From IMG/VR virus record IMGVR_UViG_3300021255_003627: a stretch of DNA of 64,000 nucleotides, one strand, 5' to 3'. A model generated the notes under the pieces. The model did not search any database. It was not told the origin of the DNA and worked only from the letters and a program-made list of their open reading frames with translations. Positions 46,867-63,637 of this stretch are shown in pieces. The translations under genes were made by a program, and so were the position numbers. The stretch comes from an uncultured virus (IMG/VR IMGVR_UViG_3300021255_003627) (lineage: Duplodnaviria > Heunggongvirae > Uroviricota > Caudoviricetes). Within the stretch, counting starts at the first letter, position 1, and each line of letters begins with the position of its first letter.

Positions 46867-46880
46867 ATGACAAAGTAGGC

Positions 46881-46921
46881 AGTGCCTATCTGTGCAATCA
46901 AGCATTGGACAGATGGGCACT
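46881..46921 (+). terminator. Long hairpin after dnaK (terminator or stabiliser)
   Basis: AGTGCCTATCTGT...ACAGATGGGCACT. Confidence 0.6.
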
Positions 46922-47061
46922 CTTAATACTTTTGTTAAAAAAATCTTAAAAAATTTGTTTATTTGATTTTTTTTCCGTATATTTGCAATTAGGTAAACAA
47001 AAAATCATATAGTTTGTTCAAGTTTTAACATACTGTAGGATACGGTCAGATAAAATGTATT

Positions 47062-48147
47062 ATGGCAGAAAGAAAGGACTATTACAAGATATTAGGGCTA
47101 AGTGACGAGGAAAGAAAACTTAAGGGTAAGGAATTTCAAGACATAATTAAAAAGAAATTCCGTAAGATTTCCATTGAGAAGCACCCAGACAAACAGCACG
47201 GAAAAAGTGACGCTGAGAAGAAACAAGCCGAGGAAGAATTCAAGGAGGCGGCACAAGCGTATGAAGTCTTGTCCGACGAAAAGAAACGTGCTGAATATGA
47301 CAATCCGCACTCCTCGTTTGATTTCAGCGGAATGGACTTTGGCGATATGCATATTGACGACATCCTTAGGCATTTCGGCTTTGGCCACGATTCGCGGCCA
47401 AAAGAAATAAAGGGAACGAGCATTAGGATTACGCTACCCTTGACTCTTGAGGAAATGGCAAATGGCGTCATCAAGAAGATTAAGTATAAACGTTTCGTCT
47501 TATGTGATAGCTGTAATGGTAGCGGGCGAACTGCAAACACAAAGGAAAGGGTGTGTCGCACTTGCGGTGGAAGTGGTATGGTCTTCTCACAGAACCATTT
47601 TATGATGGTTCAGCAAACTTGTCCGACTTGTGGTGGTCAAGGTAGATATTTGGAAAACCCTTGTACGAGATGTGGCGGTCACGGAATTGCAGAAAAGACA
47701 AATGAGGAAGCGGAGATAAAAGTAGAGAAAGGTGTATTAGGCGGCATGAGTTTTGTCTTAGAAGGCATGGGTAACTATCCGCCGCACGGAGAAGGTATTC
47801 CAGGAGACCTAATAATCCTAGTTCGCCAAATTGAACATGACACTTTTGAATGTATTAATTCCGACTTATATTGTGAGATTGGGATAAGTGTCGTCGACGC
47901 AATACTTGGTGCGAAGATTAATGTATCTACGCTCGATGGGAAGGTCTTGAGTGCTACCATACCGCAAGGAACAAAGGAAGGTGACAAACTTAGGTTTAGG
48001 GGGTATGGGATGCCAAAGTATGGGTCTAACCATGTTGGGGATATGATTGGTATCATTAGGATTAAAATACCAAAGCAAATTACAGACGACGAAAGGCAGT
48101 TGTTAGAAAAACTCAGAGAACAAGAACACTTCAAAAATGGCGATTAG
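47062..48147 (+). CDS. dnaJ: DnaJ chaperone
   Basis: DYYKILG, HPD, four CxxCxGxG repeats and a C-terminal domain. Confidence 0.95.
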   Translation: MAERKDYYKILGLSDEERKLKGKEFQDIIKKKFRKISIEKHPDKQHGKSDAEKKQAEEEFKEAAQAYEVLSDEKKRAEYDNPHSSFDFSGMDFGDMHIDDILRHFGFGHDSRPKEIKGTSIRITLPLTLEEMANGVIKKIKYKRFVLCDSCNGSGRTANTKERVCRTCGGSGMVFSQNHFMMVQQTCPTCGGQGRYLENPCTRCGGHGIAEKTNEEAEIKVEKGVLGGMSFVLEGMGNYPPHGEGIPGDLIILVRQIEHDTFECINSDLYCEIGISVVDAILGAKINVSTLDGKVLSATIPQGTKEGDKLRFRGYGMPKYGSNHVGDMIGIIRIKIPKQITDDERQLLEKLREQEHFKNGD

Positions 48148-48748
48148 GGTTATCAAGGACGAGGATATATATGACCACTTTGACGAATATGATGTCATAC
48201 TCATAGGGACTAACCTTTATTGCACGATGTCAAATGGCATTCAACTTAAGGTCATGCTAAACTATCCGTATGTGTTCAATAAAAACCTTGAAACCAAATA
48301 TGGCGACTTGGAAAAGTTAGGGACCATATTGGAATGTACAAATGAGAATGAGCCTACATTTTGTTTGTGTTTCATTACCAAAGGTTATAACTTTCGCCCT
48401 GATTTACAATCTGACTACCTTTCATATGAGGCGTTGGAAAAATGTTTGAGGCTTGTCAACATCAAGTATAAGGGCATGAGGGTTGCTTGTCCAATGTTAG
48501 GGAATAGTAGGTTTGACGGAAATGGTGACAAGGGGCGAATTATGAACATCTTTGAAGAGTCCATTAGTGATGTCGACTTGACTATTTACGACTACCACCA
48601 ACTATCTAGGGATGAAATGGTGAAAGCAATGCTAACGGCTGAGAACGAGGTTAAACTTAAGGATAGGGATGCTTATTACAAGATGGTTAGGAAGCGGAAG
48701 GCAGAAGCGGATGAACGTTTTAATAAGAATGGGCATAGAAGATACTAA
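48137..48748 (+). CDS. Macrodomain-like (ADP-ribose processing) protein
   Basis: GTNLYCTMSNGIQ matches the NxxxxMxxGI pattern; LSYEALEKCL; ACPMLG. Confidence 0.6.
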   Translation: MAIRVIKDEDIYDHFDEYDVILIGTNLYCTMSNGIQLKVMLNYPYVFNKNLETKYGDLEKLGTILECTNENEPTFCLCFITKGYNFRPDLQSDYLSYEALEKCLRLVNIKYKGMRVACPMLGNSRFDGNGDKGRIMNIFEESISDVDLTIYDYHQLSRDEMVKAMLTAENEVKLKDRDAYYKMVRKRKAEADERFNKNGHRRY

Positions 48749-48770
48749 AAACATTATAAATTAAATTCAA

Positions 48771-49145
48771 ATGATTCTACACTTACATTTAAATGAAGAC
48801 CATTTAAAACTAATCAAGTTCATTAAGATTATTGATGAGGATGACGAATTCCTAAAAATTGACAAGGTTGGGATGTTGACGATACAGTCGCATGTACTAG
48901 ATGATGTTGCAATGATTTTGGGAATGAAAGACAAAGCCATTAAAGGAACCTCTGAGGATGCAGATGGAGGTGCTTACCCCGATGATGTCGAGAAATATCT
49001 TTTGGACACGTACAACTATGTTAGGGATAACCTATATTACATAGAGACGTTGCTTCATCAATTTGCGACTGATGGTATTAAAGTCGGTCACTACAAGTGT
49101 AACGATGCAAGTTTATTTTGGGAAAAGGTCGACGATGAGGTATAA
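48771..49145 (+). CDS. Hypothetical protein
   Basis: 124-aa ORF in operon. Confidence 0.55.
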   Translation: MILHLHLNEDHLKLIKFIKIIDEDDEFLKIDKVGMLTIQSHVLDDVAMILGMKDKAIKGTSEDADGGAYPDDVEKYLLDTYNYVRDNLYYIETLLHQFATDGIKVGHYKCNDASLFWEKVDDEV

Positions 49146-49668
49146 CAAGAACAACAATCGTCAAAAAGGAATTTGGTATCCTGTTAATGACGAGATTAAA
49201 ATCAGCGGCAATGTTAGGGTTGTCGGAGAAGGTGTCGATAGCAAGGTGGTATCCATCGCCGAGGCACGGTCAATGGCTATCGATATGGGGCTTGACCTTA
49301 TTGAAATAAACGGGAATCTCGAAACACCAATCTTGAGAATAGCAAACTATGAAAAGATGGTTTATGAGATGAAGCGTTCGGCCAAGAAAAACAAACAGAA
49401 CAACAAGCCGCTGAAAGAAATACAACTTAGTGTCAACATAGGAAGGCACGACTTGGAAACAAAGGCAAAACATGCCAAGAGTTTTCTAGAGGATGGGCAC
49501 AAAGTTAAGGTAGTGCTAAAAATGAGAGGAAGAGAAATGGCAAGACGAGAGGAAAACAAAAAGCCAATTCTTGAGTTCATTGTTATGCTAGAAGATGTCG
49601 CCTCCATTGATGGGACACTTAGGGACGAAGGCAATAAAACTACCGTTTATCTTAAAAAGAAAAATTGA
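49135..49668 (+). CDS. infC: Translation initiation factor IF-3
   Basis: VNDEI, VRVV, GLDLIEI, KEIQL, HDLETK, FLEDGHKVKV and RGRE. Confidence 0.92.
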   Translation: MRYNKNNNRQKGIWYPVNDEIKISGNVRVVGEGVDSKVVSIAEARSMAIDMGLDLIEINGNLETPILRIANYEKMVYEMKRSAKKNKQNNKPLKEIQLSVNIGRHDLETKAKHAKSFLEDGHKVKVVLKMRGREMARREENKKPILEFIVMLEDVASIDGTLRDEGNKTTVYLKKKN

Positions 49669-49692
49669 ACCCTTTAAATTAAATAAAAAAAA

Positions 49693-50649
49693 ATGCTCGT
49701 AATCAATCTTAAAGCAGATACTGGTCTTGTAGACCGTTCGGAGAACACAACTCGTTATTACAAGGACATCAAAGACTATCCTACCTTTACCAAGGAACAA
49801 GAGGTCGAATGGTTTACGAAGCTAGCCGAAGCAAGAGAAAACGTAGCCAAAGCCAAGGCGTCTAAAAATAGGGAGAAAATACTACTTGCAGAGAAAGAGT
49901 ATATGGACATTAGGGACTACATTGCATGCTGTAACCAAAGGTTGGTCATATCGGCTGCAAAAAACTACTCTAGCACGGAAACACTGACAGATTATATAAA
50001 TGAGGCCAACTTCGGACTTTTTGAGGCACTTGATAGATATGATGTCACGAACGGTGCAAAATTTGCTAGTTATGCAATGTGGTTCATTCTGAGGGCAATA
50101 AACAAATACAAGTACTGCATAGACCCAGCGGTTAAGAAAACAAATTACTATAAAACCTTTCACGTTGTTGCAAAGGCTCGGAACAAGTTCATGCAAGAAA
50201 ACGAACGCATGCCAACAAGCGAAGAACTTCTCGATGCAATCAATGATAAGTATAAGAAAGACATCAAGGACAAATACGATTTGTTGGACATTCATTATGC
50301 TAGCATAGATACAGACACCGACTCTGAGGAGGCATCATATGCATATGGAGACATTGATGCATTCAATACTTCTACCGCTTCATATAATGATTATGAAGAC
50401 CAACAGAAAACCGACTTCGACAAGGAGTTGATAACTACATTGCTAGATGTCTTGACCCCAAGGGAAAGAACCATCATTGAGATGAGATTCGGCTTGTATA
50501 ACGACGAAAGCGGAATTAACAGGCAATTAGAACTTAAGGAGATTAGCGAGAGGTTGAATATAACGTCTGAACGAGTTCGCCAAATTGCGAGGGACTCCAT
50601 AAAAAAAATGAAGGACGAATATAAGCAAAGAATGGGGAAACTTCTTTAA
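49693..50649 (+). CDS. Second phage sigma-70 family factor
   Basis: NQRLVISAAKNY, EANFGLFEA, KFASYAMWFI and ITSERVRQI. Confidence 0.9.
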   Translation: MLVINLKADTGLVDRSENTTRYYKDIKDYPTFTKEQEVEWFTKLAEARENVAKAKASKNREKILLAEKEYMDIRDYIACCNQRLVISAAKNYSSTETLTDYINEANFGLFEALDRYDVTNGAKFASYAMWFILRAINKYKYCIDPAVKKTNYYKTFHVVAKARNKFMQENERMPTSEELLDAINDKYKKDIKDKYDLLDIHYASIDTDTDSEEASYAYGDIDAFNTSTASYNDYEDQQKTDFDKELITTLLDVLTPRERTIIEMRFGLYNDESGINRQLELKEISERLNITSERVRQIARDSIKKMKDEYKQRMGKLL

Positions 50650-50806
50650 ATTTTGGGACACAATAGTATAGCACTTGGCACAACTAATTTATGAAATATA
50701 GATATTTTCTAAGAAAAACAAAAAATCATCAACTAAAATTTGGAATTGTCAAATATTAGATATATCTTTGTATTGGTTAACCGAAAATAGAAATAATAAA
50801 ATAGTT

Positions 50807-51397
50807 ATGAAGAAAATAATAATTGCGCTGTTATTGGCTTGTACGTTACCTATAAATTCTCAGATAATCTACAACCAAATGGAAAATGACTCAACACGAG
50901 TCAAAATAGCAGGAATGACGTGTTGCCGAAGTTTCACAGACAAACGAGTTTTAAATGTTGGAGTTCAACAAATAACAGTAAATCAAGACACTGCATATTT
51001 TGTCGCTATCTGTATTAACCAATTAAGTAGTGGTGATATACCAACTGAAGGAAGAATGTTACTGAAAACAGAAGATGATAATGTCATAGAATTATATAAT
51101 AGTGCTTCGACAAAAGTTTATTCAACTAAGGATTATGGAACTACAACAACTGCTTATATGGTTGGTAGAAGACTAAACGTTAGAACCCAACAAAATACAG
51201 TTAGAATGAACCAAATAATAGGTTATTATCCTATTGAAGAAACTACATTAATGAGTTTATCTAAAGGTGTAACCAAGGTCAGAATTGAGTTAACACCAGC
51301 AAATTATGAAAAATCTTTTAGTAAAGATAAGGTTGGAAAAGCACTACTCAAACATTACTTAGAACTTAAAAAAGATGGATTTAAGGATGATTTTTAA
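50807..51397 (+). CDS. Exported hypothetical protein (signal peptide)
   Basis: MKKIIIALLLACTLPINSQ; has its own promoter and terminator. Confidence 0.65.
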   Translation: MKKIIIALLLACTLPINSQIIYNQMENDSTRVKIAGMTCCRSFTDKRVLNVGVQQITVNQDTAYFVAICINQLSSGDIPTEGRMLLKTEDDNVIELYNSASTKVYSTKDYGTTTTAYMVGRRLNVRTQQNTVRMNQIIGYYPIEETTLMSLSKGVTKVRIELTPANYEKSFSKDKVGKALLKHYLELKKDGFKDDF

Positions 51398-51423
51398 GAG
51401 CAATCAGTACTGATTGCTCTTTG
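51396..51423. terminator. Intrinsic terminator
   Basis: AAGAGCAATCAG-ta-CTGATTGCTCTT. Confidence 0.7.
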
Positions 51424-51449
51424 TTATAAATTATAGGGGACTTGTTAAC

Positions 51450-51923
51450 TTATTTCACGGCAACTTGTCCTCTTGAAATCATTTTCTCAAGTTTGGTTGC
51501 GACCTTTTTCGTCATTGGTCGTTCCCCATTTAGAACTTTTCTAAGTTGTGATTGTGCACCTTCTTCGGTGTGTTTTGGGAAAACGCTCCTTGCTACTGCT
51601 GCAATGTCAGTATTATCGGTGTCAATGGTGTGCCTAATTGATTCTGCGTCTGCTTGGCTTACTTTTTTGTTTTTGCTCTCATATTCATCGAAGTCATAGT
51701 ACTCTTTAGCACCTTTTGCCATTTTGCGCACTTTTATCTTACCCTTTCGATTTGCATGTTTTGCCTTCTCTTTCTTCTTTTTGTTACGCAATTCATCTAA
51801 TGTCTTCTTACGATAACTTTTTAAAATCTTTTTAACGTCGCTCAATGAATCTTCATTGAGAAACACCCTATTTTCAAGAACCTTATTGAAAGATTCGTCG
51901 ATTATTTTATCAATATTAACCAT
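51450..51923 (-). CDS. Basic XRE-like HTH protein with ESFNKVLE...FLNE leader
   Basis: C-terminal IAAVAR...QSQLRKVLNGERPMTKKVA; TATTTAT at 51947(-). Confidence 0.55.
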   Translation of the reverse strand: MVNIDKIIDESFNKVLENRVFLNEDSLSDVKKILKSYRKKTLDELRNKKKKEKAKHANRKGKIKVRKMAKGAKEYYDFDEYESKNKKVSQADAESIRHTIDTDNTDIAAVARSVFPKHTEEGAQSQLRKVLNGERPMTKKVATKLEKMISRGQVAVK

Positions 51924-52091
51924 GATTTAAATCCATACATTTTACAATAAATACTTGCTGAATACCTATTGTGTGTTGAATAATGTTAAAAATTTTGGTT
52001 ATTTGGTTTTTTTTCCATATATTTGCAGAAATAAAACTTGTCGTCATAAAGGTAACTAAACTTTTTCATATAAAATAAACACTAAAACGTT

Positions 52092-53777
52092 ATGAATAGT
52101 AAAAACTTGTTTGCGGAGGCAGTCTTCACACCTAGCACATCATTCACCTTGACTGAAAACGGAGCAAAGACACTGACCTCAACCAATTCTGCCATTGTGG
52201 ACCAATTTGGTAAAGCAGGAAACTATCGAGGCCGCTCGATTGCAGACGTATTTAAAGACCAAGCAGAAATTTGGGAGGAAAATGCGGAACTAGCGCTTCG
52301 TCTACCTTTCTACTTGAGAATGGTCACGAGAAAGACAAAAATCTCCAAGGGAAAAGAGACCGATAGGGTTCAGAGCGGACAAGGCGCAAGGGATGAAGCA
52401 TTTAAGAGGCTTTTGTGGGTTGCCAAAGAAAAACAAGATGCATTCTATAACAACATATGGCTTTTGCCAATTGTCGGTTCATGGAAGGATTTCTATACCC
52501 TTATGTTCTATGATGTAAAGGAAAACCTTAACGTCATCAATAGAGAGGCAATATATGAGATTATCGCACAAGGTCTTTTGAGCGAAACCCACGTTGATTT
52601 GGTTAAGAAATACATGCCTAGAATCAAATCCAACAAAAAATGCACGACGGAATGGACAAGATGTACAAATATGTTTGCAAAAGAATTTGCAAACATAATG
52701 AAAATGTCCTTCAAGGAATACAACAAACTAAAAGTAAGCGGAAAAGCACACGAGTTCCAAAAACTCATATGCTCTAGAAGGTTCAATGAACTTAAATGGG
52801 ATAAGATTCCAGGACGCGCACTTAGCATCATCACATCAACCAAATTCTTGGAAAACCACAATCTCGTTGATGATTATACAAAATGGATAGAAGAACAGCC
52901 AGTGGCAAAATACACTGGGTATGTCTTTGAACTTGCCGCCAAACTAAAGAAAGAGGTGCTCAGTAGGCGTTGTGGTAATTTCTACCACGGAGACATTGGT
53001 TTTAGGACACGTTTACCATTGCACATAAAACATACTATTGACGCACAGTTCAATTCGTTGGTCGCACAAGCGGAGGCCGACGGAAAGATTAACGAAAACG
53101 TATGGTGCTGCCTAGACACAAGTGGTTCAATGCAAAGACAAGTAAATGGCTTGAAAGGGATAACTTGTGGCGATATAGCTGACTCTTTGGCATTGTTCTT
53201 CACAACCCTAAACAATGGGGCTTTCCACAATAAACTCATTATGTTCGACCATAAATCCTACCCTTATACAATGGAAGGAGAGTCATTCTGTGAAAGGTTC
53301 CTAAAACTACCTAGCGTGAGTTGTGGAAGCACAAACTTCCAATCGGCAATTGATGAAATAATTAAGATTAGGAAGGAACATCCAGAAATCCCATTGGAGC
53401 AGTACCCGACAACCGTTCTAGTGGTTTCTGATATGCAATTTAATGCTGTAGACCGCTCTAGTTCTTATCGAAACCAACCAACAAACTACGAGTATTCCGT
53501 GCAGTCATTGAAAAGTGTCTTTCCAAGTGAGTTCGTGGACAATATGAAGTTCATTTGGTGGGACGTGACCTCTAGGTATGGGAATACAGACTTTGAGGGT
53601 GATTGTTCTACTCCAGGAGTGTATTACTTCAGTGGGTTTGACGGTTCAATTATGAATCTCATATTGGGCAACACTTCTGTTGTTGATGAGGGTACGAAGA
53701 AAGTTCGTCAGATGACGGCCTCTGAAATGGTTGAAAAGGCCCTAAACCAAGAGATACTTACGTATATTAGGATTTAA
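52092..53777 (+). CDS. TROVE-like/DUF2828 + vWA domain protein (Ro60-like architecture)
   Basis: TENGA, GQGARD, GSWKD, KYMPR; MIDAS DTSGSM, STNF and VSDMQF. Confidence 0.8.
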   Translation: MNSKNLFAEAVFTPSTSFTLTENGAKTLTSTNSAIVDQFGKAGNYRGRSIADVFKDQAEIWEENAELALRLPFYLRMVTRKTKISKGKETDRVQSGQGARDEAFKRLLWVAKEKQDAFYNNIWLLPIVGSWKDFYTLMFYDVKENLNVINREAIYEIIAQGLLSETHVDLVKKYMPRIKSNKKCTTEWTRCTNMFAKEFANIMKMSFKEYNKLKVSGKAHEFQKLICSRRFNELKWDKIPGRALSIITSTKFLENHNLVDDYTKWIEEQPVAKYTGYVFELAAKLKKEVLSRRCGNFYHGDIGFRTRLPLHIKHTIDAQFNSLVAQAEADGKINENVWCCLDTSGSMQRQVNGLKGITCGDIADSLALFFTTLNNGAFHNKLIMFDHKSYPYTMEGESFCERFLKLPSVSCGSTNFQSAIDEIIKIRKEHPEIPLEQYPTTVLVVSDMQFNAVDRSSSYRNQPTNYEYSVQSLKSVFPSEFVDNMKFIWWDVTSRYGNTDFEGDCSTPGVYYFSGFDGSIMNLILGNTSVVDEGTKKVRQMTASEMVEKALNQEILTYIRI

Positions 53778-53782
53778 CATAT

Positions 53783-53826
53783 AAGAAATAAGAGGAACAG
53801 ATGTTTAGTTCCTCTTATTTCTTTTA
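53783..53826 (+). terminator. Intrinsic terminator
   Basis: AAGAAATAAGAGGAAC...GTTCCTCTTATTTCTT. Confidence 0.8.
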
Positions 53827-53947
53827 GCAAATCTTTTTTTCATTGTAAGAATCTCTGACTACATAGAAAATAATTTTTTCTTAAAAAAAGTGAATATTTT
53901 TGTTGTTTTTGCGGCAAAAATATATCTTTGCATCGAATAGGTAGATT

Positions 53948-54067
53948 ATGTTTAAGAAAAAACGGAAGAAAAAAAATAAGCCAAGACAAGCAATGAGCCA
54001 AAAACAAATGACAAAGATGTATGATTCATTGTTGTCAAAGAAGAGGTTATCGGTTTGTCTTGTATAG
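53948..54067 (+). CDS. 39-aa Lys-rich peptide upstream of tyrS
   Basis: MFKKKRKKKNKPRQAMSQKQMTKMYDSLLSKKRLSVCLV*; first ORF after the promoter at 53923. Confidence 0.4.
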   Translation: MFKKKRKKKNKPRQAMSQKQMTKMYDSLLSKKRLSVCLV

Positions 54068-54115
54068 GTTTTGGCAAGGATTGTTAAACGAGTTTTAAAT
54101 AGTTTTTTTTTAAAG

Positions 54116-55417
54116 ATGGATAATTCAAAAAAATTAGTTGAGGAACTTAAGGCTAGGGGTCTAATATCTAGCACGAACGGTGATTTGTACGAAGCATTTT
54201 CAAAACAAGCGACATTTTATGTTGGGACAGACAGCACAGGAGACAGCCTTCATGTTGGTCACCTATTGGCATTTACAACGGCTAAGTTGTTACAGTCCTA
54301 TGGACATAAGCCAATCGTTTTGGTTGGCTCATTCACCGCCAAGATTGGTGACCCGTCATTTCGTGACACTTCTCGTCCAATGATTAGTGACGAACAAGTC
54401 GCCCACAATACGAAGTGTATCAAGGAGCAAGTTAGTCGTTTGATTGATTTTGATAGTGACATTCCAAATAAGGCCATTATGGTTGATAATGAGGAATGGA
54501 TGTCCAATATGAGTTTTGGTGACTTCATGAACAATGTCGCCAAACTGACCACCGTCAACTATATGATGGCAAAGGAGTCCGTCAAGAAGCGCCTTGATAG
54601 GGATGGCGAGGGTTTATCCTTGTGTGAATTTTTGTATATGTGTTGCCAAGGTTATGACTTTTTACATTTGTATAAGGAGTACAATTGTAATGGACAGATT
54701 GGTGGTCAAGACCAATACGGAAATTGCACAATAGGGCAAGAGTTTATTAGAAAGTCGCTTGGTAAGACGGATACATTTGTTATTACATGGCCTTTGGTGA
54801 CAAGGGCAGACGGAACCAAGTTCGGCAAATCTAGCAACGGTAAGAACGTTTGGTTGGACGCCAATAAGACTTCCTCGTTCGAGTTTTACCAATTTTGGCT
54901 GAACCAATCCGACAACGATGCCGAGGCATTCATCAAGAAATTCACCCTAATACCGTTGGAAGAAATTGACACAATGGTTGCGAGGCATAAGGAGAACCCT
55001 AGCAAGCGTTACTTGCAGATGGAGTTATCCAAATATATGACTTGTCTTGTACATGGCGAGGAAGAGTACAAAAAGGCAGTTGAGGCTTCAAATATTTTGT
55101 TCGGCAATGGGACGTTGGAGCAATTGAAGACAATCGAAGAAACAACCCTTCTATCCGCAATGGGCGGCGTGTCGAAGGTCGAGGTTAGCAAAGAATCATT
55201 TGATAATGGAATCCTTGTCCTAGACGTTGCATCTATGCATGATAAGGTTTCGTCAAAATCAGAGGCGAGAAAACTCATTAAGGCTAATGGTTTTTCTGTT
55301 AATAAAGAAAAGGTGACGGACGAAAAATCCACCATTGGCGCTGACAAACTAATCAATGGGAAATATCTTTTGCTGACAAAGGGCAAAAAAGACTATTGCC
55401 TTGTGGTAGTAGGATAA
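54116..55417 (+). CDS. tyrS: Tyrosyl-tRNA synthetase
   Basis: SLHVGH (HIGH), IGDPS, QGYDF, QIGGQDQYGN, KFGKS (KMSKS) and a C-terminal S4 domain. Confidence 0.95.
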   Translation: MDNSKKLVEELKARGLISSTNGDLYEAFSKQATFYVGTDSTGDSLHVGHLLAFTTAKLLQSYGHKPIVLVGSFTAKIGDPSFRDTSRPMISDEQVAHNTKCIKEQVSRLIDFDSDIPNKAIMVDNEEWMSNMSFGDFMNNVAKLTTVNYMMAKESVKKRLDRDGEGLSLCEFLYMCCQGYDFLHLYKEYNCNGQIGGQDQYGNCTIGQEFIRKSLGKTDTFVITWPLVTRADGTKFGKSSNGKNVWLDANKTSSFEFYQFWLNQSDNDAEAFIKKFTLIPLEEIDTMVARHKENPSKRYLQMELSKYMTCLVHGEEEYKKAVEASNILFGNGTLEQLKTIEETTLLSAMGGVSKVEVSKESFDNGILVLDVASMHDKVSSKSEARKLIKANGFSVNKEKVTDEKSTIGADKLINGKYLLLTKGKKDYCLVVVG

Positions 55418-55507
55418 TGTGCTTAACAAATGTTAAAAACAATGTCTTGCGGTTAAGAGAAAATTAGAAAATTGAATAGTAAACAATATATTGGAAACCT
55501 AAACTAA

Positions 55508-57277
55508 ATGGGAAAAGTTATTTTTACAAAATCAGACAAATTCACATCAGAATACTGTTGCAGTATTGTGAAGATTGGCGAGGTTAAAGCGATTGAGGGT
55601 AAGGACAAGATTGGCTACACCATTGTCAATGGCGAGACAATTGTGGTCCGTAAAGACCAAGTCAAGGAAGGTGATGTTCTTTTCTATGCTTCTAATGAGA
55701 CGCAGTTGGATAAGGGGTTTCTCGGTGCCAATAACCTTTTTGAGGCTTCTTCATACGAGCTCAATGCTAATGCAAACGAACTTAAACCTATTGTTGAGAA
55801 GAACAAGGAATTGAAGGTGGAGTTCGAGAATGTCGATAAAATCATTAGGAAACTCTCCACTTGCTCGGCGTTTATGGATGCGTATGAGGGTGAGATTATT
55901 GCAGCAAGCGGCGATGAGGATAAGGAGGAGGAACTTACGACTAAGTTCAATAACTGCAAGAAAACCATCATGAAGTATGCTGGTGGTAATTTGACCTTGG
56001 AATCATCTGTAAGTGATTTCGTCGCAACCGCAAATTCTCAGTGCGAGGAGAAGAAGGCTCAATATGAATCACTTAAAAACCTTATTGATGCGAATGCAAA
56101 TACAATAAGAAACAGTGTTGGTTTCTTCAATAAAACTGGTCGTGTACGCGCCATACGTCTTGGCGGCGTTCAGTCAATGGGCTACCTTTTCTCGATTGAT
56201 GAACTTGCAAGGTATAACCCAAATGTAAAGGACGTGAATGTCGACAACCTTGTTGGAGAAGATTTCGATACGATTGAAGGTGAACTTTTCATCAAGGCAT
56301 ATGTTCCATTTGTTCCCCAACGAGGCAATAAAGGTGATGGGAAGTCAAAAGACCGCAAGCGCAACAAAAAGATTGAGGAGTTCAACAGAATGGTCAAAGG
56401 TGAATTCTTTTTCCATTACAGCACAGACCCATTGCCAAAGTGTATCAATAGGGTTAAGCCAAATGATGTTGTGACAATAACAAGTAAGTTACACGGGACA
56501 TCAATCGTTATTGGCAAACTTCACGTGAAGACACCAATCAAATTACCATTCCACAAGTACATTTGGAATAAGTTCGTTGATTTGACAAGACTATTCAAAC
56601 CATACCGTTTTACAGACTACATTGTGGAGTATGGTAACGTAACCTCTTCACGCACTGTCATTAAAAACCAATATATCAACAAACAAGTCAAAGAAGGGTT
56701 CTACGGAGTTGACATATGGACGGAGTATGGCAACTTGATTTATCCTTTCATTGACGAGGGCATGACAATCTATGGCGAGATTGTTGGGTACATCACCAAT
56801 TCTGACAAGATGATTCAGAGTGGTTATGACTATGGCTGTGAAAATGGAGAGAACAAGTTGATGATATACCGCATTACCACGACCAATGACGATGGCACTA
56901 AACACGAGTGGAACGTCATCGAAGTCAAGGAGTGGACCGAAAGGCTGATTAGTGAACATCCTGAAATCAAGGATAGAATCCACGTTATCGATTTGCTTTA
57001 TCATGGTACGCTTGCAGATTTCTACCCAGAGATTTCAATTGAGAGTCATTGGCACGAAAATGTGCTTGAAGCCATGAGGAATGACAAGAAACGGCTGAAT
57101 ATGGAAAAGAACGACCCTATCTGCAAAAACAAAGTTCCGTTCGAGGGTATTGTGCTTCGCATTGACAATGACGAACTTGCAGAGGCGTTCAAGTTGAAGA
57201 CTCAGAAGTTCTTGTCAAAGGAACGTGAAAGCATTGATGCTGGTAAAGTCGATATTGAAATGGCAGACACTTATTAG
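55508..57277 (+). CDS. ATP-dependent RNA ligase (DRB0094-like) with N-terminal OB/tRNA-binding domain
   Basis: N-terminal IEGKDKI...RVRAIRLGGVQSMGYL; NTase motifs KLHGTS, YGEIVG, EGIVLR and FKLK. Confidence 0.8.
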   Translation: MGKVIFTKSDKFTSEYCCSIVKIGEVKAIEGKDKIGYTIVNGETIVVRKDQVKEGDVLFYASNETQLDKGFLGANNLFEASSYELNANANELKPIVEKNKELKVEFENVDKIIRKLSTCSAFMDAYEGEIIAASGDEDKEEELTTKFNNCKKTIMKYAGGNLTLESSVSDFVATANSQCEEKKAQYESLKNLIDANANTIRNSVGFFNKTGRVRAIRLGGVQSMGYLFSIDELARYNPNVKDVNVDNLVGEDFDTIEGELFIKAYVPFVPQRGNKGDGKSKDRKRNKKIEEFNRMVKGEFFFHYSTDPLPKCINRVKPNDVVTITSKLHGTSIVIGKLHVKTPIKLPFHKYIWNKFVDLTRLFKPYRFTDYIVEYGNVTSSRTVIKNQYINKQVKEGFYGVDIWTEYGNLIYPFIDEGMTIYGEIVGYITNSDKMIQSGYDYGCENGENKLMIYRITTTNDDGTKHEWNVIEVKEWTERLISEHPEIKDRIHVIDLLYHGTLADFYPEISIESHWHENVLEAMRNDKKRLNMEKNDPICKNKVPFEGIVLRIDNDELAEAFKLKTQKFLSKERESIDAGKVDIEMADTY

Positions 57278-57283
57278 TTGTCA

Positions 57284-57592
57284 TTAGAAAAACGGATTGT
57301 TTGACAAAGAATCAATTATGGTTTGATACTTTTGGCATGTCTCTTGAAAATCGTTTACATCGTCATGGCATAAGTCAAACCATTCCCCGTTAATCCTTGA
57401 GGAGTTGAACCGATTGTGAAGCATTGTTTCAAGTTTAAATGGCTTATCGGTCTCAAAGTTGTCCTTTAAGTAGATGACGGAAGAGTTGCCAGTTTGCAAC
57501 TGCTTGATTCGTTTGCCGATGTCCGATGAATTGGTTGAACCAATTTTATATCCTTCTCGCCCCATCTCTTTAAGAAGATAAACGTATCCCAT
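57284..57592 (-). CDS. GIY-YIG family (T5orf172/MUG113) nuclease domain protein
   Basis: GYVYL, YKIG, RIKQLQTGN, LETMLH and GEWF. Confidence 0.85.
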   Translation of the reverse strand: MGYVYLLKEMGREGYKIGSTNSSDIGKRIKQLQTGNSSVIYLKDNFETDKPFKLETMLHNRFNSSRINGEWFDLCHDDVNDFQETCQKYQTIIDSLSNNPFF

Positions 57593-57712
57593 GTCTAAAA
57601 AATAGTTAAAAATGGGAAGATGTTAAAGGTTTTTATTGGTTGGATGGAATATTTTCCGTATATTTGCAACAATAACAATTTTTATTAACAAAATAATAAA
57701 GGAAAAAACAAA

Positions 57713-58495
57713 ATGAAGAAAATTATTTTTATGCTTTTTGTGGCTATGTTTAGTACAGAAAGTTTTTGCCAAACTGAACCAGATTTTGCAATGGAACCAC
57801 ACGTTTTTAACTTCGCAGACTCCACCTTTGAGGTACCCCTACCTTGTGAGAGGACCTATGTGCGTGGAAAGGCTGACGCCTCATTGTATATTTTTGGTGT
57901 AGGAAAAACTAGTGTTTATCGTTACATTGATGGAGAAAAATCACCTTTAGAGATTGACAAAAACGTTAGTGGCATTATCATCAATACAGACGGTGAATCA
58001 CCAGTACACACCCTTTCCATCAACAAACTTGAAATACTAAAGACAAAACGAAGATGGAAAACTCATGAAAGTGGCACTTTTACGGGGTCGTCATACGGTA
58101 CAGATGCCTCTGTTGGGTTGAAGTATAAGAAATATGGCAAGAATTCCGTTATCATCAAAACTTCTGATTTGTCACCAGGGGAATATTGTATTACTGCTAT
58201 CAACATCAAAACTACCACAAACAATTTTAAAGCATTCACATTCAGAGTTAAAGGTGTAATCATAGATACCTACGAGAAATATTATGTTCGAGTTGTTGGA
58301 GGAAAAGGCGAAACTCTTCATATCCACAACACATCGGGTGACCTCATCCAAACCATTGACATTAAAACTGACGACGAGCGATTTAGACCCAAATTAAAGA
58401 AGAAAAATTCTTACATTTTAAAAGTTGGGTCGTCAGAAGAAAAAATTTCAATTGATAGGAATGGTTTTGTTTCAATTGACACTTCGTTTTTGTGA
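57713..58495 (+). CDS. Exported hypothetical protein (signal peptide)
   Basis: MKKIIFMLFVAMFSTESFCQ, a Bacteroidota-type signal ending at Gln. Confidence 0.65.
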   Translation: MKKIIFMLFVAMFSTESFCQTEPDFAMEPHVFNFADSTFEVPLPCERTYVRGKADASLYIFGVGKTSVYRYIDGEKSPLEIDKNVSGIIINTDGESPVHTLSINKLEILKTKRRWKTHESGTFTGSSYGTDASVGLKYKKYGKNSVIIKTSDLSPGEYCITAINIKTTTNNFKAFTFRVKGVIIDTYEKYYVRVVGGKGETLHIHNTSGDLIQTIDIKTDDERFRPKLKKKNSYILKVGSSEEKISIDRNGFVSIDTSFL

Positions 58496-58545
58496 TACCA
58501 CAAAGAATTGTAAAACATTTGAATAATTTTTAATATATTTATTTT

Positions 58546-58716
58546 ATGTACACAATTATTTGTTTAATCATTTTTTTTGGAATGTTTGTGGCAGTGAATG
58601 TGCCAAAACCTTGTACCGAAGAGACAAAAAAATCTTTGATTCCAGTCTTCCTCGTCGCGTTGATTGTTTCAGTTTTGATTGACATGTTTATTTTTCTACT
58701 TTGCTACGTTTTTTGA
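58546..58716 (+). CDS. 56-aa protein with two hydrophobic segments
   Basis: MYTIICLIIFFGMFVAVNVPKPCTEETKKSLIPVFLVALIVSVLIDMFIFLLCYVF*; ends 2 nt before the rtcB ATG. Confidence 0.45.
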   Translation: MYTIICLIIFFGMFVAVNVPKPCTEETKKSLIPVFLVALIVSVLIDMFIFLLCYVF

Positions 58717-58718
58717 TT

Positions 58719-59255
58719 ATGATTGAAATTAAAGGAAAACATTGTAAGGATTTGAAAATCTTTACTGACAATATAGAGGAAACGGCTTTATCCACTTTAT
58801 ACAAAGTGGCAGATGAAGTTCCGTATGAGAACACTAAAATACGAATCATGCCAGACGTACATCAAGGCGTTGGCAACACAGTTATTGGTTTTTCTTGTCC
58901 TATTGACCTCGAAAACGGTTATGTATCGGTACAAGCGGTTGGGTGCGATTTAGGCTGTTCGGTAAGTGCTTGGTTTTATGAGAAGCCGATTTCAGACGAC
59001 AAGATACAAGAGTTTGAGCACAAAATCCGAAAGGTCATACCGTTTGGTTTTAACATCAATCAGAAAAGCAAGGTTGATGTGAAGTGCCTAATCAAGGAAA
59101 TAAACAAGTCAATACAACGCATTGTGTCAAGACATCCGATTCTCTCTGATTATTCGATTGAGTTCAAGAGTGAGAGAGACCTTGAAAAATGGTGTGATAG
59201 GATTGGTATGGACTATGGTGTATTCCTAAAATCCATCGGAACTGTTGGCGGTGGT
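58719..59255 (+). CDS. rtcB: RtcB RNA ligase, exon 1
   Basis: MPDVHQG, VGCDLGC; ends SIGTVGGG. Confidence 0.9.
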
Positions 59256-60163
59256 GAAACGATTGCCACCGTGTGAGTTAATAGCTCACAGTAGTTAAAT
59301 TCGTCCAAATCGGTGGAGCCTGTGACGGTAATACCGAGGGAAGTGCTCTGACAATAGTCAACACCCCGTAACGAGCGGAGGGACTTGAAATGTCGTTTTA
59401 AATAGGCATAAGGTGCGCTCTGAACTATAGAGAAAAAGAATCTATAGAGAATGTCAGAAATGAGCATTCCAATTAATATTGAAAATGACCACTTCTTCAT
59501 TATTATTTATAATATATAAGTAATAATATGTTGAATAAAGACAAGAGTTATATTTTTGGTATTTTAATAACAGATGGTAGTTTATATTTAACCACTAGAA
59601 ATAGGGGGAAAGTAACATTAGAAATCTCTAAAAAAGACGAAGATTTAGTTGATAAATTAATCAAATTAGTTCCGTTTTCGACTAAAAGTACTAGAACTAG
59701 AAAAACTAATTTTTGCGCAAGTGGTACTGACTTTGTTTCTTTTAAAAATTATAGGAGAGAATTTAGAGAAAATCTAATTGAGAATGGCTTCCCAACAAAA
59801 AATAAAGCAATAAACGCATCAACTCCTTCTGAAGAATATGATGAAGTTTCTTTTTGGAGAGGCGTTATTGATGGGGATGGAAGTATAGGCGTGACTAATA
59901 AAAACGAGCCATTTGTTTCTCTAGTTACAAAAAGTGAAAATCTTAAAAATAAATACTTAGAATTTTTACACAAAAATTTTGGAATAGCCAAAAATGTAAA
60001 CAAGAACAAAAGAGACAATGTATACAATATTGTTGTAAAAAATAAAAACGCTAGAGACTTAGTTGATTTACTATACAACAATAAAGAAATACATCTTAAT
60101 CGTAAATATGATAAAGCAATGTTTATCCTTGAAAATTTTCAATATTAATTAGTAACAAATTTG
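59256..60163 (+). mobile_element. Group I self-splicing intron with homing endonuclease
   Basis: P1 CGGUGGU/GCCACCG with U.G at the splice site; GAUU/AAUC P10; P4 UCGGU/ACCGA; P7 GAGCG/CGCUC; terminal G at 60163. Removal restores GGG-NH. Confidence 0.9.
59528..60148 (+). CDS. Double-motif LAGLIDADG homing endonuclease (intron-encoded)
   Basis: YIFGILITDGSL and FWRGVIDGDGSI motifs; markedly AT-rich. Confidence 0.9.
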   Translation: MLNKDKSYIFGILITDGSLYLTTRNRGKVTLEISKKDEDLVDKLIKLVPFSTKSTRTRKTNFCASGTDFVSFKNYRREFRENLIENGFPTKNKAINASTPSEEYDEVSFWRGVIDGDGSIGVTNKNEPFVSLVTKSENLKNKYLEFLHKNFGIAKNVNKNKRDNVYNIVVKNKNARDLVDLLYNNKEIHLNRKYDKAMFILENFQY

Positions 60164-60952
60164 AATCATTACGTTGAATATGATGTAAACGAAGAGTTAG
60201 GAAAATATTGTATTTGTGTGCATTGTGGTTCTAGAAACTTGGGTCAAAAGGTCTTTAAGTATTGGGATAAGATTGCAAAAACCATGTGCATTTCAAAGGA
60301 TGAAATGAGGGCAATTACTGATGGGGTGAAGGCGACAGTGAAAGATAAGACCATCCTTTCGAAAGCAATAAAGGAAGCAAGGGAGGAATATCTTAAGGGT
60401 AGGATACCAAACTTCTTAAATGGGGAAAACATGTACAAGTACTTGATGGATGTGGCAGTTGCCCAAACATATGCAAGAATTAATCACGAGACGATTCAAG
60501 AACAAATATCAGAAATTTATATGTTTTTGTCGAAGGGTGCAAAGGTTGTAGATAAAATCTACACCACCCACAATTATGTTGACTTAGGTGATATGGTTCT
60601 GAGAAAAGGCGCAGTTCGTTCATATATCGGAGAGAGGCTGATTATTCCTTTTAACATGCGAGATGGTATAGGAATATTTGAGGGAAAATCAAATGAGGAT
60701 TGGAACTGTACAGCCCCGCATGGATGTGGAAGGCTTTACAGCAGAAGTAAGGCAAAAGAGCAGCTTAGCGTGGAAAACTTTAAGACAGAAATGGCTGCGG
60801 CTGGAATATACACAACCACAGCAGATGCCTCCACTTTGGATGAGGCACCTCAAGCCTACAAGTCTTATGAAGAGATTTTGGAGTTGATTGAGCCTACAGT
60901 TAATGTGCTCTATCTGATGAAACCAAAAATCAATATCAAGGCATCGGAATAG
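60164..60952 (+). CDS. rtcB: RtcB RNA ligase, exon 2
   Basis: NHYVE, VHCGSRNLG, HNYV, RKGA, PHGCGR and DEAPQAYK; spliced product 441 aa. Confidence 0.9.
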   Translation, partial: NHYVEYDVNEELGKYCICVHCGSRNLGQKVFKYWDKIAKTMCISKDEMRAITDGVKATVKDKTILSKAIKEAREEYLKGRIPNFLNGENMYKYLMDVAVAQTYARINHETIQEQISEIYMFLSKGAKVVDKIYTTHNYVDLGDMVLRKGAVRSYIGERLIIPFNMRDGIGIFEGKSNEDWNCTAPHGCGRLYSRSKAKEQLSVENFKTEMAAAGIYTTTADASTLDEAPQAYKSYEEILELIEPTVNVLYLMKPKINIKASE

Positions 60953-61430
60953 TGCCATCGATTTTCTCTTTTAAGAAATGTGTGAAATATGGCTTTGGTT
61001 TTGATTGGTAATACTCTTTCGCCCATTGGCGTTTTGTTTTAAGTGGTATCCCCTCTAGTTCTTTCCATAGCCATACGCTACCATTTTTACAATAATCCCA
61101 ATTGTCTTGTTGTAGGTATGCCTCCATTTCCATAGGTTCAAACTTGTATGGGGCATAAATGTCAACAAATATAAGTGGTAGGTTTTTTATCCATTCCCAT
61201 ACATATGTGACATAAAATCTAAACCAAGAGTCTTTTGTAGACTCTGCTTGTCTTATATGTATGGTCTCATGCGATTTTAGTTGAGAGTCAATCTCGTCGC
61301 TTTTGTTAAGGTCGTCTGCGTCATTCTTTGTCTTGCAGTACGCATAACCTTTCCAAACAAAACACTTGAAATTTGGTGGCAATATCCATGCTTTTTTGCC
61401 TTTGACACATTTGAATTCGCTAGGTTTCAT
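60936..61430 (-). CDS. HExxH zincin-like protein
   Basis: HETIHIRQ...EMEAY; start MKPSEF after TATTTAT at 61442(-). Confidence 0.6.
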   Translation of the reverse strand: MKPSEFKCVKGKKAWILPPNFKCFVWKGYAYCKTKNDADDLNKSDEIDSQLKSHETIHIRQAESTKDSWFRFYVTYVWEWIKNLPLIFVDIYAPYKFEPMEMEAYLQQDNWDYCKNGSVWLWKELEGIPLKTKRQWAKEYYQSKPKPYFTHFLKEKIDGTIPMP

Positions 61431-61498
61431 GTTTTTTTGAGATAAATATTTTGTTTTTTCCAATTTTTTACATATATTTGCACTAAATTAAACCATAA

Positions 61499-62178: not shown

Positions 62179-62401
62179 AGGAGAAGAGGTATTCTCATCC
62201 TTTCATAGACCAAGTTGTTAAGTACTTAATCGTACCCAAATCAATTGATAGTTTCTCCAAGCCGTTTTGCGACTTGGAGAGATTTGTATGTGGCCGAGGA
62301 ATTGCGACACCAAATGTCTAAAAAAAGTTAAAAGATTTTGCCAACTAATCTTTTTTCCATATATTTGCAAGGAAACATTTACAATAAACATAAAAGCAAA
62401 T

Positions 62402-63637
62402 ATGAGTAAAGAAATGCAAATGGAGTTCGTTAAGACAGTGTCCAATGAAAATGAACCGACAATGACACATGAAGTACATGAAGGAACACAGATAACAGAA
62501 GCGCCTAAAACAACTAGTGTGCGAGTGTTAGGCGATGATGGCTCGGTTAACGTCGCTTCCCTAACCACAGACAAGCGAGCATATTACCACGAGATTAGTA
62601 AAGTTCTTGATGAAAAGGACTTGACTTCTGTAACAACCTATGGCTCTGACTTGCAACGCGCAATGGGCAACTACTCAAATGTTTTCCTAAAGCAATCGTT
62701 TAATTCCGAAAACGGGGTTGAAACAACACAACTGATTTCAAATTTGCTCGGTGAGTTGCATGAGGTCAACATTGACGACCTTGAGGCACCGAACGCTTGG
62801 AAAAGGTTCTTGGCTAAGGTTCCAGGTGTTAGGAAACTTATAGTGAGCGTTGAGCAAATCAAGGCGAAATATAACACCATTGAGAAGAATATTGATTCAA
62901 TTGTTGGTAAACTTGAGGCTAGCCGTCAGATTGCGTTACGAGACAACAACCTATTGCAGAAACAGTTTGAGGACAACTGTGATTACGTTGACCAACTCGA
63001 AGACCTCATTGTTGCTGGAAAAATTAAATCCGAGGAACTAGGTGCAAGAATCGGAAGCATGAAAGCGAACCGAGACTTGCATGAGGACTATGAGATTGGT
63101 GACATTGAGGAGTATAAAAATTCGCTCGACAAGCGTTTGAACGATTTGTGCCTCCTTCGTCATGCATTCAAACAGTCGCTAACGCAAATCCGCATCATTC
63201 AGCGGACAAACATGATGAATGCCAACAATACCGAGACACAGATTGCAATGACAATTCCAGTATGGAAAAACCAATTGTCCCTCGCAGTTGCTCTGTATGA
63301 CCAAAAAAAGGCACTTGAAGTTTCAAGTAAAGTTTCAGAAACAACAAATAAGATACTTCTTAAAAACAGCGAGATGATGAAGACCCAAGCCATTGAGGTG
63401 GCAAAACAATCTCAGCGTTCCGTCATCGACATTGACACATTGCGCAAGACCACACAAGACCTTCTTGAAACGGTCGAGGGTGTTCAGCGAGCAAATGAGG
63501 AAGGTGCTAAGAGACGTGCAGAGGCTGAGGTGGAACTCAGAAGGCTTGAACACGAAATGACCAAGTCGGCAGTAGGCGTCAATAATACGACGCAACGCAT
63601 TGTTGCCAAGGAACTTAAGAGAATAGAGCAACATTAA
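62402..63637 (+). CDS. Toxic anion resistance protein (TelA/KlaB family)
   Basis: YGSDLQ, IDSIVGKL, QIRIIQRTN, TIPVWKNQL and VIDIDTL; coiled coil. Confidence 0.85.
   Translation: MSKEMQMEFVKTVSNENEPTMTHEVHEGTQITEAPKTTSVRVLGDDGSVNVASLTTDKRAYYHEISKVLDEKDLTSVTTYGSDLQRAMGNYSNVFLKQSFNSENGVETTQLISNLLGELHEVNIDDLEAPNAWKRFLAKVPGVRKLIVSVEQIKAKYNTIEKNIDSIVGKLEASRQIALRDNNLLQKQFEDNCDYVDQLEDLIVAGKIKSEELGARIGSMKANRDLHEDYEIGDIEEYKNSLDKRLNDLCLLRHAFKQSLTQIRIIQRTNMMNANNTETQIAMTIPVWKNQLSLAVALYDQKKALEVSSKVSETTNKILLKNSEMMKTQAIEVAKQSQRSVIDIDTLRKTTQDLLETVEGVQRANEEGAKRRAEAEVELRRLEHEMTKSAVGVNNTTQRIVAKELKRIEQH

Follow-up and report, generated by a model that had tools for sequence, protein, structure and literature searches.

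Four RNA-handling genes in a translation-related gene island of an uncultured ruminant-gut phage

Genes at the locus

We analysed a window of 64,000 nucleotides (nt), by which we mean the whole stretch of DNA studied, from an uncultured virus of the Caudoviricetes (IMG/VR record IMGVR_UViG_3300021255_003627). Between positions 52092 and 60952 it encodes a Ro60-like protein, a tyrosyl-tRNA synthetase (TyrRS), an ATP-dependent RNA ligase and the ligase RtcB. An earlier note, made from the sequence alone, had joined the four into one system for the repair and recharging of cleaved tRNA. Their presence within 9 kb on the + strand was borne out by the open reading frames (ORFs). The same 9 kb also hold genes unrelated to RNA repair, namely a T5orf172/MUG113 gene and an insertion of 1050 nt.

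The first gene (52092..53777, +) encodes a protein with a TROVE-like helical ring and a vWA domain, as judged from Pfam, PHROG and an AlphaFold model compared with Foldseek. Its Pfam matches at E-values up to 0.01 are limited to DUF7788 (E 2e-14), DUF2828 and, weakly, VWA_2, with no sequence match to the Pfam TROVE family; it also matches PHROG 850, annotated as 'RNA-binding protein'. The DxSxS motif of the metal-ion-dependent adhesion site (MIDAS; D342, S344 and S346) is invariant in 102 diverse homologues (alignment A3), and its residues align with the DVSASM motif of Ro60. A phmmer search of PDB with the single sequence found no Ro60, and the profile of the 102 sequences gave human and Xenopus Ro60 as the best solved relatives (E 2e-4 and 9e-4), through the vWA part. 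Single-sequence searches of PDB likewise returned nothing for this protein, the ATP-dependent ligase or the first exon of RtcB. The AlphaFold model has a predicted local distance difference test score (pLDDT) of 93.3 and a predicted template modelling score (pTM) of 0.92. Its 12 top PDB matches in Foldseek are all Ro60/TROVE proteins aligned over the whole length (about 560-600 aligned columns), the best being 1yvr (E 3e-9, template modelling scores 0.53/0.57); the fold matches include the Rsr protein of Deinococcus (2nvo) and the Ro60 of Thermus phage phiLo (9l5y). The description 'Ro60-like TROVE/vWA' given in the earlier note therefore holds at the level of the modelled fold, whereas the sequence family is DUF2828 and not Pfam TROVE. 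The ring would bind structured, damaged or tRNA-like RNA. No YrlA-like match was found at E-values up to 10 in positions 51300-54200, a search that a divergent partner RNA would escape.

The Ro60-like gene is followed by a hairpin and T run resembling an intrinsic terminator (53783..53826, +), which came up in chance alignments to Rfam. A hairpin lies at the same spot in all 10 aligned relatives, with arms that are different yet mutually complementary (alignment A5). Next come a Bacteroidota-type promoter-like motif (53899..53930, +), of which the TAnnTTTG part is kept in relatives, and behind it a small, very basic ORF of 39 amino acids (aa; 53948..54067, +), also kept. Its equivalents, of 53-55 aa, lie at the matching place in relatives L025 (11809-11970) and L030 (11801-11968). 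These sequences of 39-55 aa follow the pattern MF..KKK... and then ...KKRL.V, and the small ORF matches no Pfam family. We looked for a T-box or a Y RNA between the Ro60-like gene and the TyrRS gene and found neither: the spacer consists of the terminator, the promoter-like motif and the small ORF.

The TyrRS gene (54071..55417, +) is intact and of bacterial type by Pfam, TIGR00234 and motifs, as the earlier note had it. It matches PF00579 (E 8e-71) together with the SYY_C-terminal and S4 families, and scores 337 bits with TIGR00234 (the tyrS equivalog) against a cut-off of 113.8. The protein carries HVGH and KFGKS, corresponding to the HIGH and KMSKS motifs of class I enzymes, and a C-terminal S4-like domain. 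Its true start is likely the ATG at 54116 (MDNSKK...), where the alignments of relatives begin. One or two in-frame TAA codons were flagged in the TyrRS matches of relatives G010 and G011, which begin 5' of the likely start codon; these stops probably precede the gene. The enzyme would charge tRNA-Tyr, including the phage tRNA-Tyr(GTA) found in relatives.

The ATP-dependent RNA ligase (589 aa; 55508..57277, +) was assigned to the Rnl5 type from Pfam, PHROG 968, a structural model (pLDDT 80) and alignment A4. Its Pfam matches, to RNA_ligase and PHA02142-OB (21.9 bits, below the cut-off of 27), are weak. An N-terminal OB module (about 1-95 and 205-265) is interrupted by a coiled-coil insert of about 110 aa (89-203) and followed by a C-terminal nucleotidyltransferase domain. 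The ligase motifs are K327-x-H-G, E424, E546-G...R551 and K562-x-K564; all 21 ligase sequences of alignment A4 share motif I (K327-x-H-G) and motifs III, IV and V without variation. The 13 top Foldseek matches are all to NgrRnl of Naegleria gruberi (E 7e-11 to 9e-10) and cover both domains, while T4 Rnl2 (E 3e-5) and T4 Rnl1 (E 1.3e-2) follow further down. The earlier note was right in identifying an OB-fused ATP-dependent RNA ligase. The enzyme is of the type that seals duplex nicks rather than an Rnl1-type anticodon-loop ligase, and we found no end-healing kinase among the window ORFs scanned. Rnl5 ligases are described as sealing 3'-OH/5'-phosphate nicks in duplexes with an RNA 3' end; the same source calls their physiology uncharted and reports that the Deinococcus enzyme aids genome recovery after irradiation (PMC5397189). 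The enzyme encoded here would accordingly be expected to act on such nicks in duplex RNA or RNA-DNA, and it may serve in the repair of either RNA or DNA. It is probably co-transcribed with TyrRS.

RtcB is present as the earlier note stated, not however as one gene-length ORF. It is encoded in two pieces, 908 nt apart and in different frames (ORFs 58701-59276 and 60161-60952). Exon 1 (58719..59255, +) has 179 codons from the ATG at 58719 and ends in ...G-T-V-G-G-G, encoded by GGC GGT GGT. Exon 2 (60164..60952, +) has 262 codons and starts with N-H-Y-V-E, the first four encoded by AAT CAT TAC GTT. The Pfam RtcB family covers positions 8-110 in exon 1 and 154-425 in exon 2 (E 1.9e-35); for PHROG 1075 the corresponding ranges are 56-205 and 206-443. 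The GGG|NH metal-site motif spans the junction, exon 2 contains HCGSR and HGCGR (with the histidine nucleophile), and exon 2 was aligned to solved RtcB chains. A full-length family match with all motifs would thus be obtained only if the exons were joined. The exons are colinear with the uninterrupted RtcB of metagenome contig L037 and of eight relatives.

The boundaries of the insert (908 nt; 59256..60163, +) come from contig L037, which is 99.3-99.5% identical over 7.8 kb and has an rtcB gene without exactly positions 59256-60163 (junction at 4515/4516). At the 5' boundary GGUGGU (59250-59255) pairs with GCCACC (59265-59270) to form a P1 of six pairs with a U.G at the splice site. Just 5' of the P1 guide sequence, GAUU (59261-59264) pairs with AAUC of exon 2 (60164-60167) as a P10, and the last base of the insert (60163) is G. 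The 5' 287 nt fold far better than shuffled sequences (z-score -4.6; 0 of 200 shuffles as good). The loop closed by a perfect stem of 15 bp (59471-59485 with 60136-60150) contains an ORF for a LAGLIDADG homing endonuclease (59528..60148, +; PF14528, E 1.9e-13; PHROG 4645). There are in-frame stops after exon 1, therefore the insert is not an intein. We call it a group-I-like intron because P1, P10 and the terminal G are present but an Rfam match and the P3-P8 core were not found. Its 5' part had no blastn match in phages, a 21-nt exact word from it had none in viral contigs, and among the 10 titles listed by a literature search none seemed to describe an intron in a phage rtcB.

The intron is variable among strains. 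We aligned contigs of four ruminant-gut DNA runs on positions 57000-61200. One sheep-gut run contains both the intron-less joint, with the letters of L037, and the exon-intron junction. Another has the intron and lacks the neighbouring insertion of 1050 nt, and both are found in run X7, whose strain is about 5% diverged. These differences mark the intron as a mobile element that is polymorphic among strains. A single contig of run X3 joins 59481 to 60105; this hints at an intron without most of the ORF, though it may be an effect of assembly. The alleles of the window and of L037 differ by 11 amino-acid changes in 441 codons. Seven of their 31 exon differences are found between -6 and +11 relative to the insertion site, and just one of these seven changes an amino acid; such clustering would look like a homing site made immune or co-converted. 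The coexistence of both alleles in one sample provides a ready homing site for a new LAGLIDADG enzyme. The RtcB of this strain would require the self-splicing of the intron out of the mRNA, and would then, as other members of its family, seal breaks with 2',3'-cyclic-phosphate and 5'-OH ends, for example those made by host tRNA nucleases. In the 412-kb relative L031 we observed an extra fragment (18245-18466) matching RtcB residues 6-80, about 2 kb 5' of the full rtcB (20213-21571), with two ORFs of unknown function in between.

Linkage in relatives and the surrounding island

Using the Ro60-like protein, TyrRS and RtcB as queries, we retrieved 23 loci on 17 contigs from IMG/VR. Fourteen of these contigs, up to 412 kb long, keep the gene order of the window from DnaK to TelA. 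They belong to one phage family, with Ro60-like proteins of 47-66% identity, and include the near-duplicates L017/L018 and L025/L026. The Ro60-like and TyrRS genes are adjacent in all 14 and RtcB is found in eight, always uninterrupted, while none has the Rnl5-type ligase. Among 50 ORFs scanned in the space between TyrRS and RtcB or SSB, we found NAD synthase, radical-SAM, FMN reductase, GIY-YIG and DUF723 endonucleases, and unknown proteins. Searches of the whole records of five relatives that are 96-100% complete found TyrRS in all five and RtcB in two (it is absent from a 96%-complete genome). The ligase was found in none, although the same search recovered it in five of five known carriers.

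Ten viral ligase loci have no TyrRS, RtcB or Ro60-like gene within 10 kb, nor do five of them anywhere in their whole records. In 55 metagenome ligase loci the arrangement of four genes occurs only in L037 and L038, which are the window's own strain, and a further 20 loci, each spanning at least 15 kb, lack all three of TyrRS, RtcB and the Ro60-like gene. On the short contig L085, a match of 44 residues to the end of a DUF2828 protein lies about 3 kb before the start of the ligase. Each of the five near-complete relatives (G006-G010) encodes one or two other genes of the PF09414 RNA ligase family (232-379 aa, e.g., G006 238721-239062), tens of kb (about 70 kb) from the TyrRS region. The family's ATP-dependent ligase chemistry is therefore independent of the Rnl5 gene. 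An end-healing kinase was not found among the 53 ORFs of the window that were scanned, and PF13671 was found in none of the five near-complete relatives (control, 14 of 14 genomes); other kinase families were not searched.

Given the terminator, the promoter-like motif and the small ORF between the Ro60-like and TyrRS genes, together with the patchy occurrence of the ligase, we conclude that there is no four-gene operon and that the ligase is a strain-level arrival. It would have been acquired within the variable segment that follows TyrRS, and RtcB would be an accessory gene. The Ro60-like and TyrRS genes are the sole constant pair, a constancy that is inseparable from plain synteny within one family.

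The link between the Ro60-like protein and tRNA genes is broader. A scan of the window found no tRNA gene, and Rfam at the gathering score gave no match in its entire length. In the relatives L012, L019 and L022, tRNA arrays 3' of TelA include tRNA-Tyr(GTA), and the start of an array is visible at this place in L017, L018 and L023; by synteny the array would lie just past the end of the window. The arrays also hold tRNAs for Glu, Gln, Arg, Pro, His and Leu, so tyrosine is not singled out, and the focus on tRNA-Tyr proposed in the earlier note was not retained. More widely, tblastn with the Ro60-like protein gave matches in 528 of 50,697 phage records. We picked 12 of these by hand from the hit lists, one per genus. 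In 10 of them annotated tRNA genes are found no more than 3 kb from the homologue, which mostly lies at 0.2-1.3 kb or inside an array; neither Mycobacterium phage Aegeus nor Vibrio phage MS02 has any within this distance. Five of the ten have full tRNA maps, from which we calculated that, in each, a gene placed at random would have a probability of about 6-16% of being as near to a tRNA gene. Several tRNAs adjacent to DUF2828 genes are annotated as 'pseudo' or 'other' (KP2025, Porthos, PX29 and B3); they could be tRNA-like Y RNAs. A separate neighbourhood of Ro60-like and RtcB genes was observed in Listeria phage LMTA-34 (L100, 2677-6737), where a tRNA-Met, the Ro60-like gene, a gene for a metal-dependent phosphohydrolase and RtcB share a stretch of 5 kb, RtcB being 1.3 kb 3' of the Ro60-like gene. 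Our search of the literature found no work on DUF2828 in phages.

The locus would belong to an island of host-like genes that is conserved across a family of phages of about 300-410 kb. The window is gene-dense on the + strand and phage-like, and megablast of the 8.9-kb locus against sequenced phages found no near-identical DNA. DnaK, DnaJ, IF3 and a sigma factor lie 5' of the locus, SSB and TelA lie 3' of it, and farther upstream are a second sigma factor, ClpP, a proteasome-like subunit and BspA-type leucine-rich-repeat proteins. The island would thus run from DnaK, DnaJ, IF3 and the sigma factor through the Ro60-like gene, the small basic ORF, TyrRS, the variable segment and, in some phages, RtcB to SSB, TelA and the tRNA array. 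The set of host-like genes for proteostasis and translation (a proteasome-like subunit, two sigma-70-family proteins, ClpP, DnaK, DnaJ, IF3 and TelA) is unusually large; these genes lie at 21919-22461 (-), 27413-28147, 30694-31380, 44980-50649 and 62267-63637.

The earlier note had placed the four genes behind host-type promoters. Sites of the E. coli sigma-70 type are not in excess in the window (37 found against 34.4 +/- 5.0 expected). In contrast, the pattern TTTG-N17-23-TAnnTTTG, which we take to be the Bacteroidota-type promoter consensus, occurs 14 times against 3.6 +/- 2.1 expected, a number reached by none of 100 shuffles, and the majority of these sites sit just 5' of gene starts. One lies 67 nt 5' of the Ro60-like gene (51994..52025, +), another, given above, precedes the small ORF and TyrRS, and none is found directly 5' of the ligase. 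A pattern scan also placed a site just past the ligase (57300..57334, +); in L037, which is free of the insertion of 1050 nt, it sits about 360 nt 5' of RtcB. Other sites are at 18746-18776 (-), 22493-22524 (-), 41641-41672, 44851-44881, 46954-46985, 61450-61480 and 62337-62367. The enrichment upstream of gene starts suggests Bacteroidota-type promoters and hence the phylum of the host. The genes carried by insertions begin with MKKII-type signal peptides, and the four DNA runs that carry the stretch are labelled as sheep, goat or bovine gut metagenomes. The phage family probably infects bacteria of the ruminant gut, with Bacteroidota as hosts.

The variable segment contains several further elements. 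The ligase is immediately followed, on the other strand, by a T5orf172/MUG113 gene of the GIY-YIG superfamily (57284..57592, -; E 1.2e-15), which is outside RNA repair. A structured RNA considered in 57335-57668 was rejected: it has a z-score of -1.2, and these positions correspond to the complement of the T5orf172 coding strand. Nor did a mobile cassette of T5orf172 and the ligase find support, as the two genes are adjacent elsewhere only in L037 of the same strain, and T5orf172 homologues in four other loci lie 3.4-5.1 kb from the ligase. The insertion of 1050 nt (57669..58718, +) is specific to this strain; neither L037 nor the contigs of runs X2, X3 and X4 contain it. It encodes orf260 (57713-58495, +), with a start resembling that of a signal peptide or lipoprotein, and orf56 (58546-58716, +). 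We considered orf260 as the missing kinase and rejected it given its signal-peptide start, the lack of a family match and its absence from near-identical strains. A second strain-specific insertion, at 50651-51446 relative to L038, encodes orf209, again with a signal-peptide or lipoprotein-like start. Both insertions have a lower G+C content (about 0.34).

Readings of the locus

We favour, with a probability of roughly 0.6, the reading that the four RNA-handling genes are separate units with separate histories, which happen to co-occur in the translation-related island of this strain. The differences in their distribution among relatives and the signals that separate the Ro60-like gene from TyrRS are what this reading describes. 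Several points weigh against it. The 14 syntenic contigs form one family and include near-duplicates, so the constant adjacency of the Ro60-like and TyrRS genes neither proves nor excludes selection for their linkage, and it could be a real functional unit that we undervalue. The account of the intron is also exposed: Rfam group I models at E-values up to 10, run on 4.4 kb and on the 311-nt 5' part, gave no match, though the long ORF may defeat such models; the P3-P8 core was not assignable by hand (P3 and P7 were attempted); and since splicing is a prediction, the interrupted rtcB could be dead in this strain. Finally, the assignment of the host draws solely on a presumed promoter consensus, the style of the signal peptides and the BspA-type repeats.

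A looser link to tRNA holds: the Ro60-like/TyrRS pair and the general association of Ro60-like proteins with tRNA genes are the parts that deserve tests. In agreement with what has been published on jumbo phages (PMC7824862), a role of RtcB and the Ro60-like protein in RNA or tRNA repair and in counter-defence is reasonable. If the looser reading is true, the family is a natural experiment, as its members differ in RtcB, the Rnl5-type ligase and the rtcB intron and all keep the Ro60-like/TyrRS pair. It could then help to assign roles to DUF2828, which occurs in more than 500 sequenced phages, usually by tRNA genes, one of them with an experimental phenotype (PMC11482910).

A stronger version would make a functional unit of the Ro60-like protein, the small basic protein and TyrRS, a trio that is constant. 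The widespread DUF2828 proteins of phages would then be Ro60-type particles that act on phage tRNAs or tRNA-like decoys and counter tRNA-targeting immunity, with RtcB and the ligases as optional additions. Such particles might protect, check or present tRNAs, here together with the phage TyrRS and tRNA-Tyr. We consider it possible, and on balance unlikely.

At the other extreme, the genes may have no functional link at all, being independent auxiliary genes gathered in a recombination-prone region rich in homing endonucleases and small inserted genes, where chance events of insertion made them neighbours. In favour of this, three insertions specific to this strain, all within 10 kb, set the window apart from contigs of 99% identity, nearly every relative has different genes between TyrRS and SSB, and GIY-YIG, DUF723, T5orf172 and LAGLIDADG genes share this segment here and in related phages. 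An absence of any link does not, however, account well for Ro60-like homologues lying beside tRNA genes in 10 of 12 lineages, given the chance of about 6-16% each estimated from the five mapped records, nor for the recurrence of Ro60-like/RtcB linkage in Listeria phages. We regard this explanation, too, as an unlikely one.

The proposal of the earlier note was an integrated anti-defence module, in which cut tRNA is captured by the Ro60-like protein, resealed with either end chemistry by RtcB or the ATP-dependent ligase, and recharged by TyrRS, perhaps mainly in the case of tRNA-Tyr. In its favour, the four genes are confined to 9 kb of one strand, also in the near-identical L037 and L038, the Ro60-like and TyrRS genes are neighbours in all 14 relatives, and the arrays near them in relatives encode tRNA-Tyr(GTA). 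Ro60-like and RtcB genes are also neighbours in LMTA-34 and in the bacterial rsr-rtcBA operon (PMC7790460, PMC4201824), and the Ro60-like protein of phage Bas63 is reported to counter a defence system experimentally (PMC11482910). Yet the note itself had named unlinking in relatives as evidence against such a system, and in relatives the genes are unlinked: the ligase is missing from all 14 syntenic contigs and all five near-complete genomes, RtcB is missing from six of the 14, and unrelated metabolic genes occupy the gap. A conserved terminator hairpin and a promoter motif of its own separate TyrRS from the Ro60-like gene. An Rnl5-type ligase depends on nicks in a duplex and may work in DNA repair (PMC5397189), no Pnkp-like kinase accompanies it in the window, PF13671 being equally missing from the five relatives and present in the 14 control genomes, and relatives keep their other PF09414 ligases about 70 kb away. 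The mixed tRNA content of the arrays shows no focus on tyrosine. Jumbo phages similar to CBB and GAP32 have TyrRS beside GroES without the other three genes. The integrated module is on these grounds improbable.

It is very improbable that rtcB is decaying, i.e., that the endonuclease cassette disrupted the gene, is not spliced and cost this strain its RtcB: the lack of an Rfam group I match and the dispensability of RtcB (six of 14 relatives are without it) would fit, but the frames of both exons are still open and no RtcB motif is lost, the exons have only the 11 amino-acid changes in 441 codons relative to the intact allele, the boundaries give a P1 with U.G, an adjacent 4-bp P10 and a terminal G, the 5' part of the intron folds far beyond its shuffles, and the same insert persists in the strain of run X7.

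Comparison with known systems

In phage T4, Pnkp and Rnl1 repair the anticodon loop of tRNA. The locus resembles this pair in having a phage ATP-dependent RNA ligase in a context of counter-defence, and differs from it in that we found no Pnkp (in the window, or as PF13671 in five relatives) and that Rnl1 is a distant fold match. The td, nrdB and nrdD genes of T4 carry group I introns with homing endonucleases. As in these genes and in RtcB proteins containing inteins (NCBIfam NF038162 and NF052663), the element in rtcB is mobile and self-splicing by prediction, sits at a conserved catalytic motif and varies in presence between strains. Unlike the RtcB inteins it would be an RNA intron, with a core lacking an Rfam match.

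The ligase shares with DraRnl and NgrRnl (PDB 5cot and 6vt1; PMC5397189) an N-terminal OB domain, a C-terminal adenylyltransferase domain and the lysine motif. It is much longer, with 589 aa against about 340, and has a coiled coil of about 110 aa within the OB module; some of its relatives are without this insert.

The nearest bacterial parallel is the rsr-yrlA-rtcBA operon (PMC4201824, PMC7790460), which likewise has a gene for a Ro60-type ring near RtcB and a tie to tRNA-like RNAs. In contrast to it, the locus yielded no YrlA or Y RNA and neither RtcA nor RtcR, the protein is of DUF2828/DUF7788 and not of the TROVE family, and the Ro60-like and RtcB genes are 5-7 kb apart with separate signals.

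Phages, too, have Ro60-like proteins. YrlA RNAs were reported near TROVE-annotated Ro60 in 22 phages (Chen et al. 2014, PMC4201824), and the structure of the Ro60 of Thermus phage phiLo is available (9l5y, PMC12135203). In a preprint, gp130 of phage Bas63 is described as a Ro60-like protein encoded directly 5' of tRNA genes that counters the ppl defence system, and its authors suggest that some of the 'tRNAs' beside gp130 may be Y RNAs (PMC11482910). The position of gp130 beside tRNA genes is the one that we found in 10 of 12 lineages. We liken gp130 to the protein studied here by its description and not by sequence family, and the target of gp130 is a putative DNA-degrading system rather than a tRNA nuclease.

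The closest precedent comes from jumbo phages, for which section 3.4.9 of Iyer et al. 2021 (PMC7824862) describes RNA repair genes in any combination of RtcB, ATP-grasp ligases (Rnl1, Rnl2 and rare divergent ones), ROT/TROVE proteins and tRNAs, and reads them as a counter-measure to host attack on tRNA. Our results do not overturn current views, because this list of parts is already published. The family described here, from the ruminant gut and with Bacteroidota-type promoters, is not among the isolates treated in that section, and its locus departs from the sets listed there in three respects: the ligase is of the Rnl5 type with a coiled-coil insert, and not Rnl1 or Rnl2; a TyrRS gene stands beside the TROVE-like gene; and rtcB carries a mobile intron.

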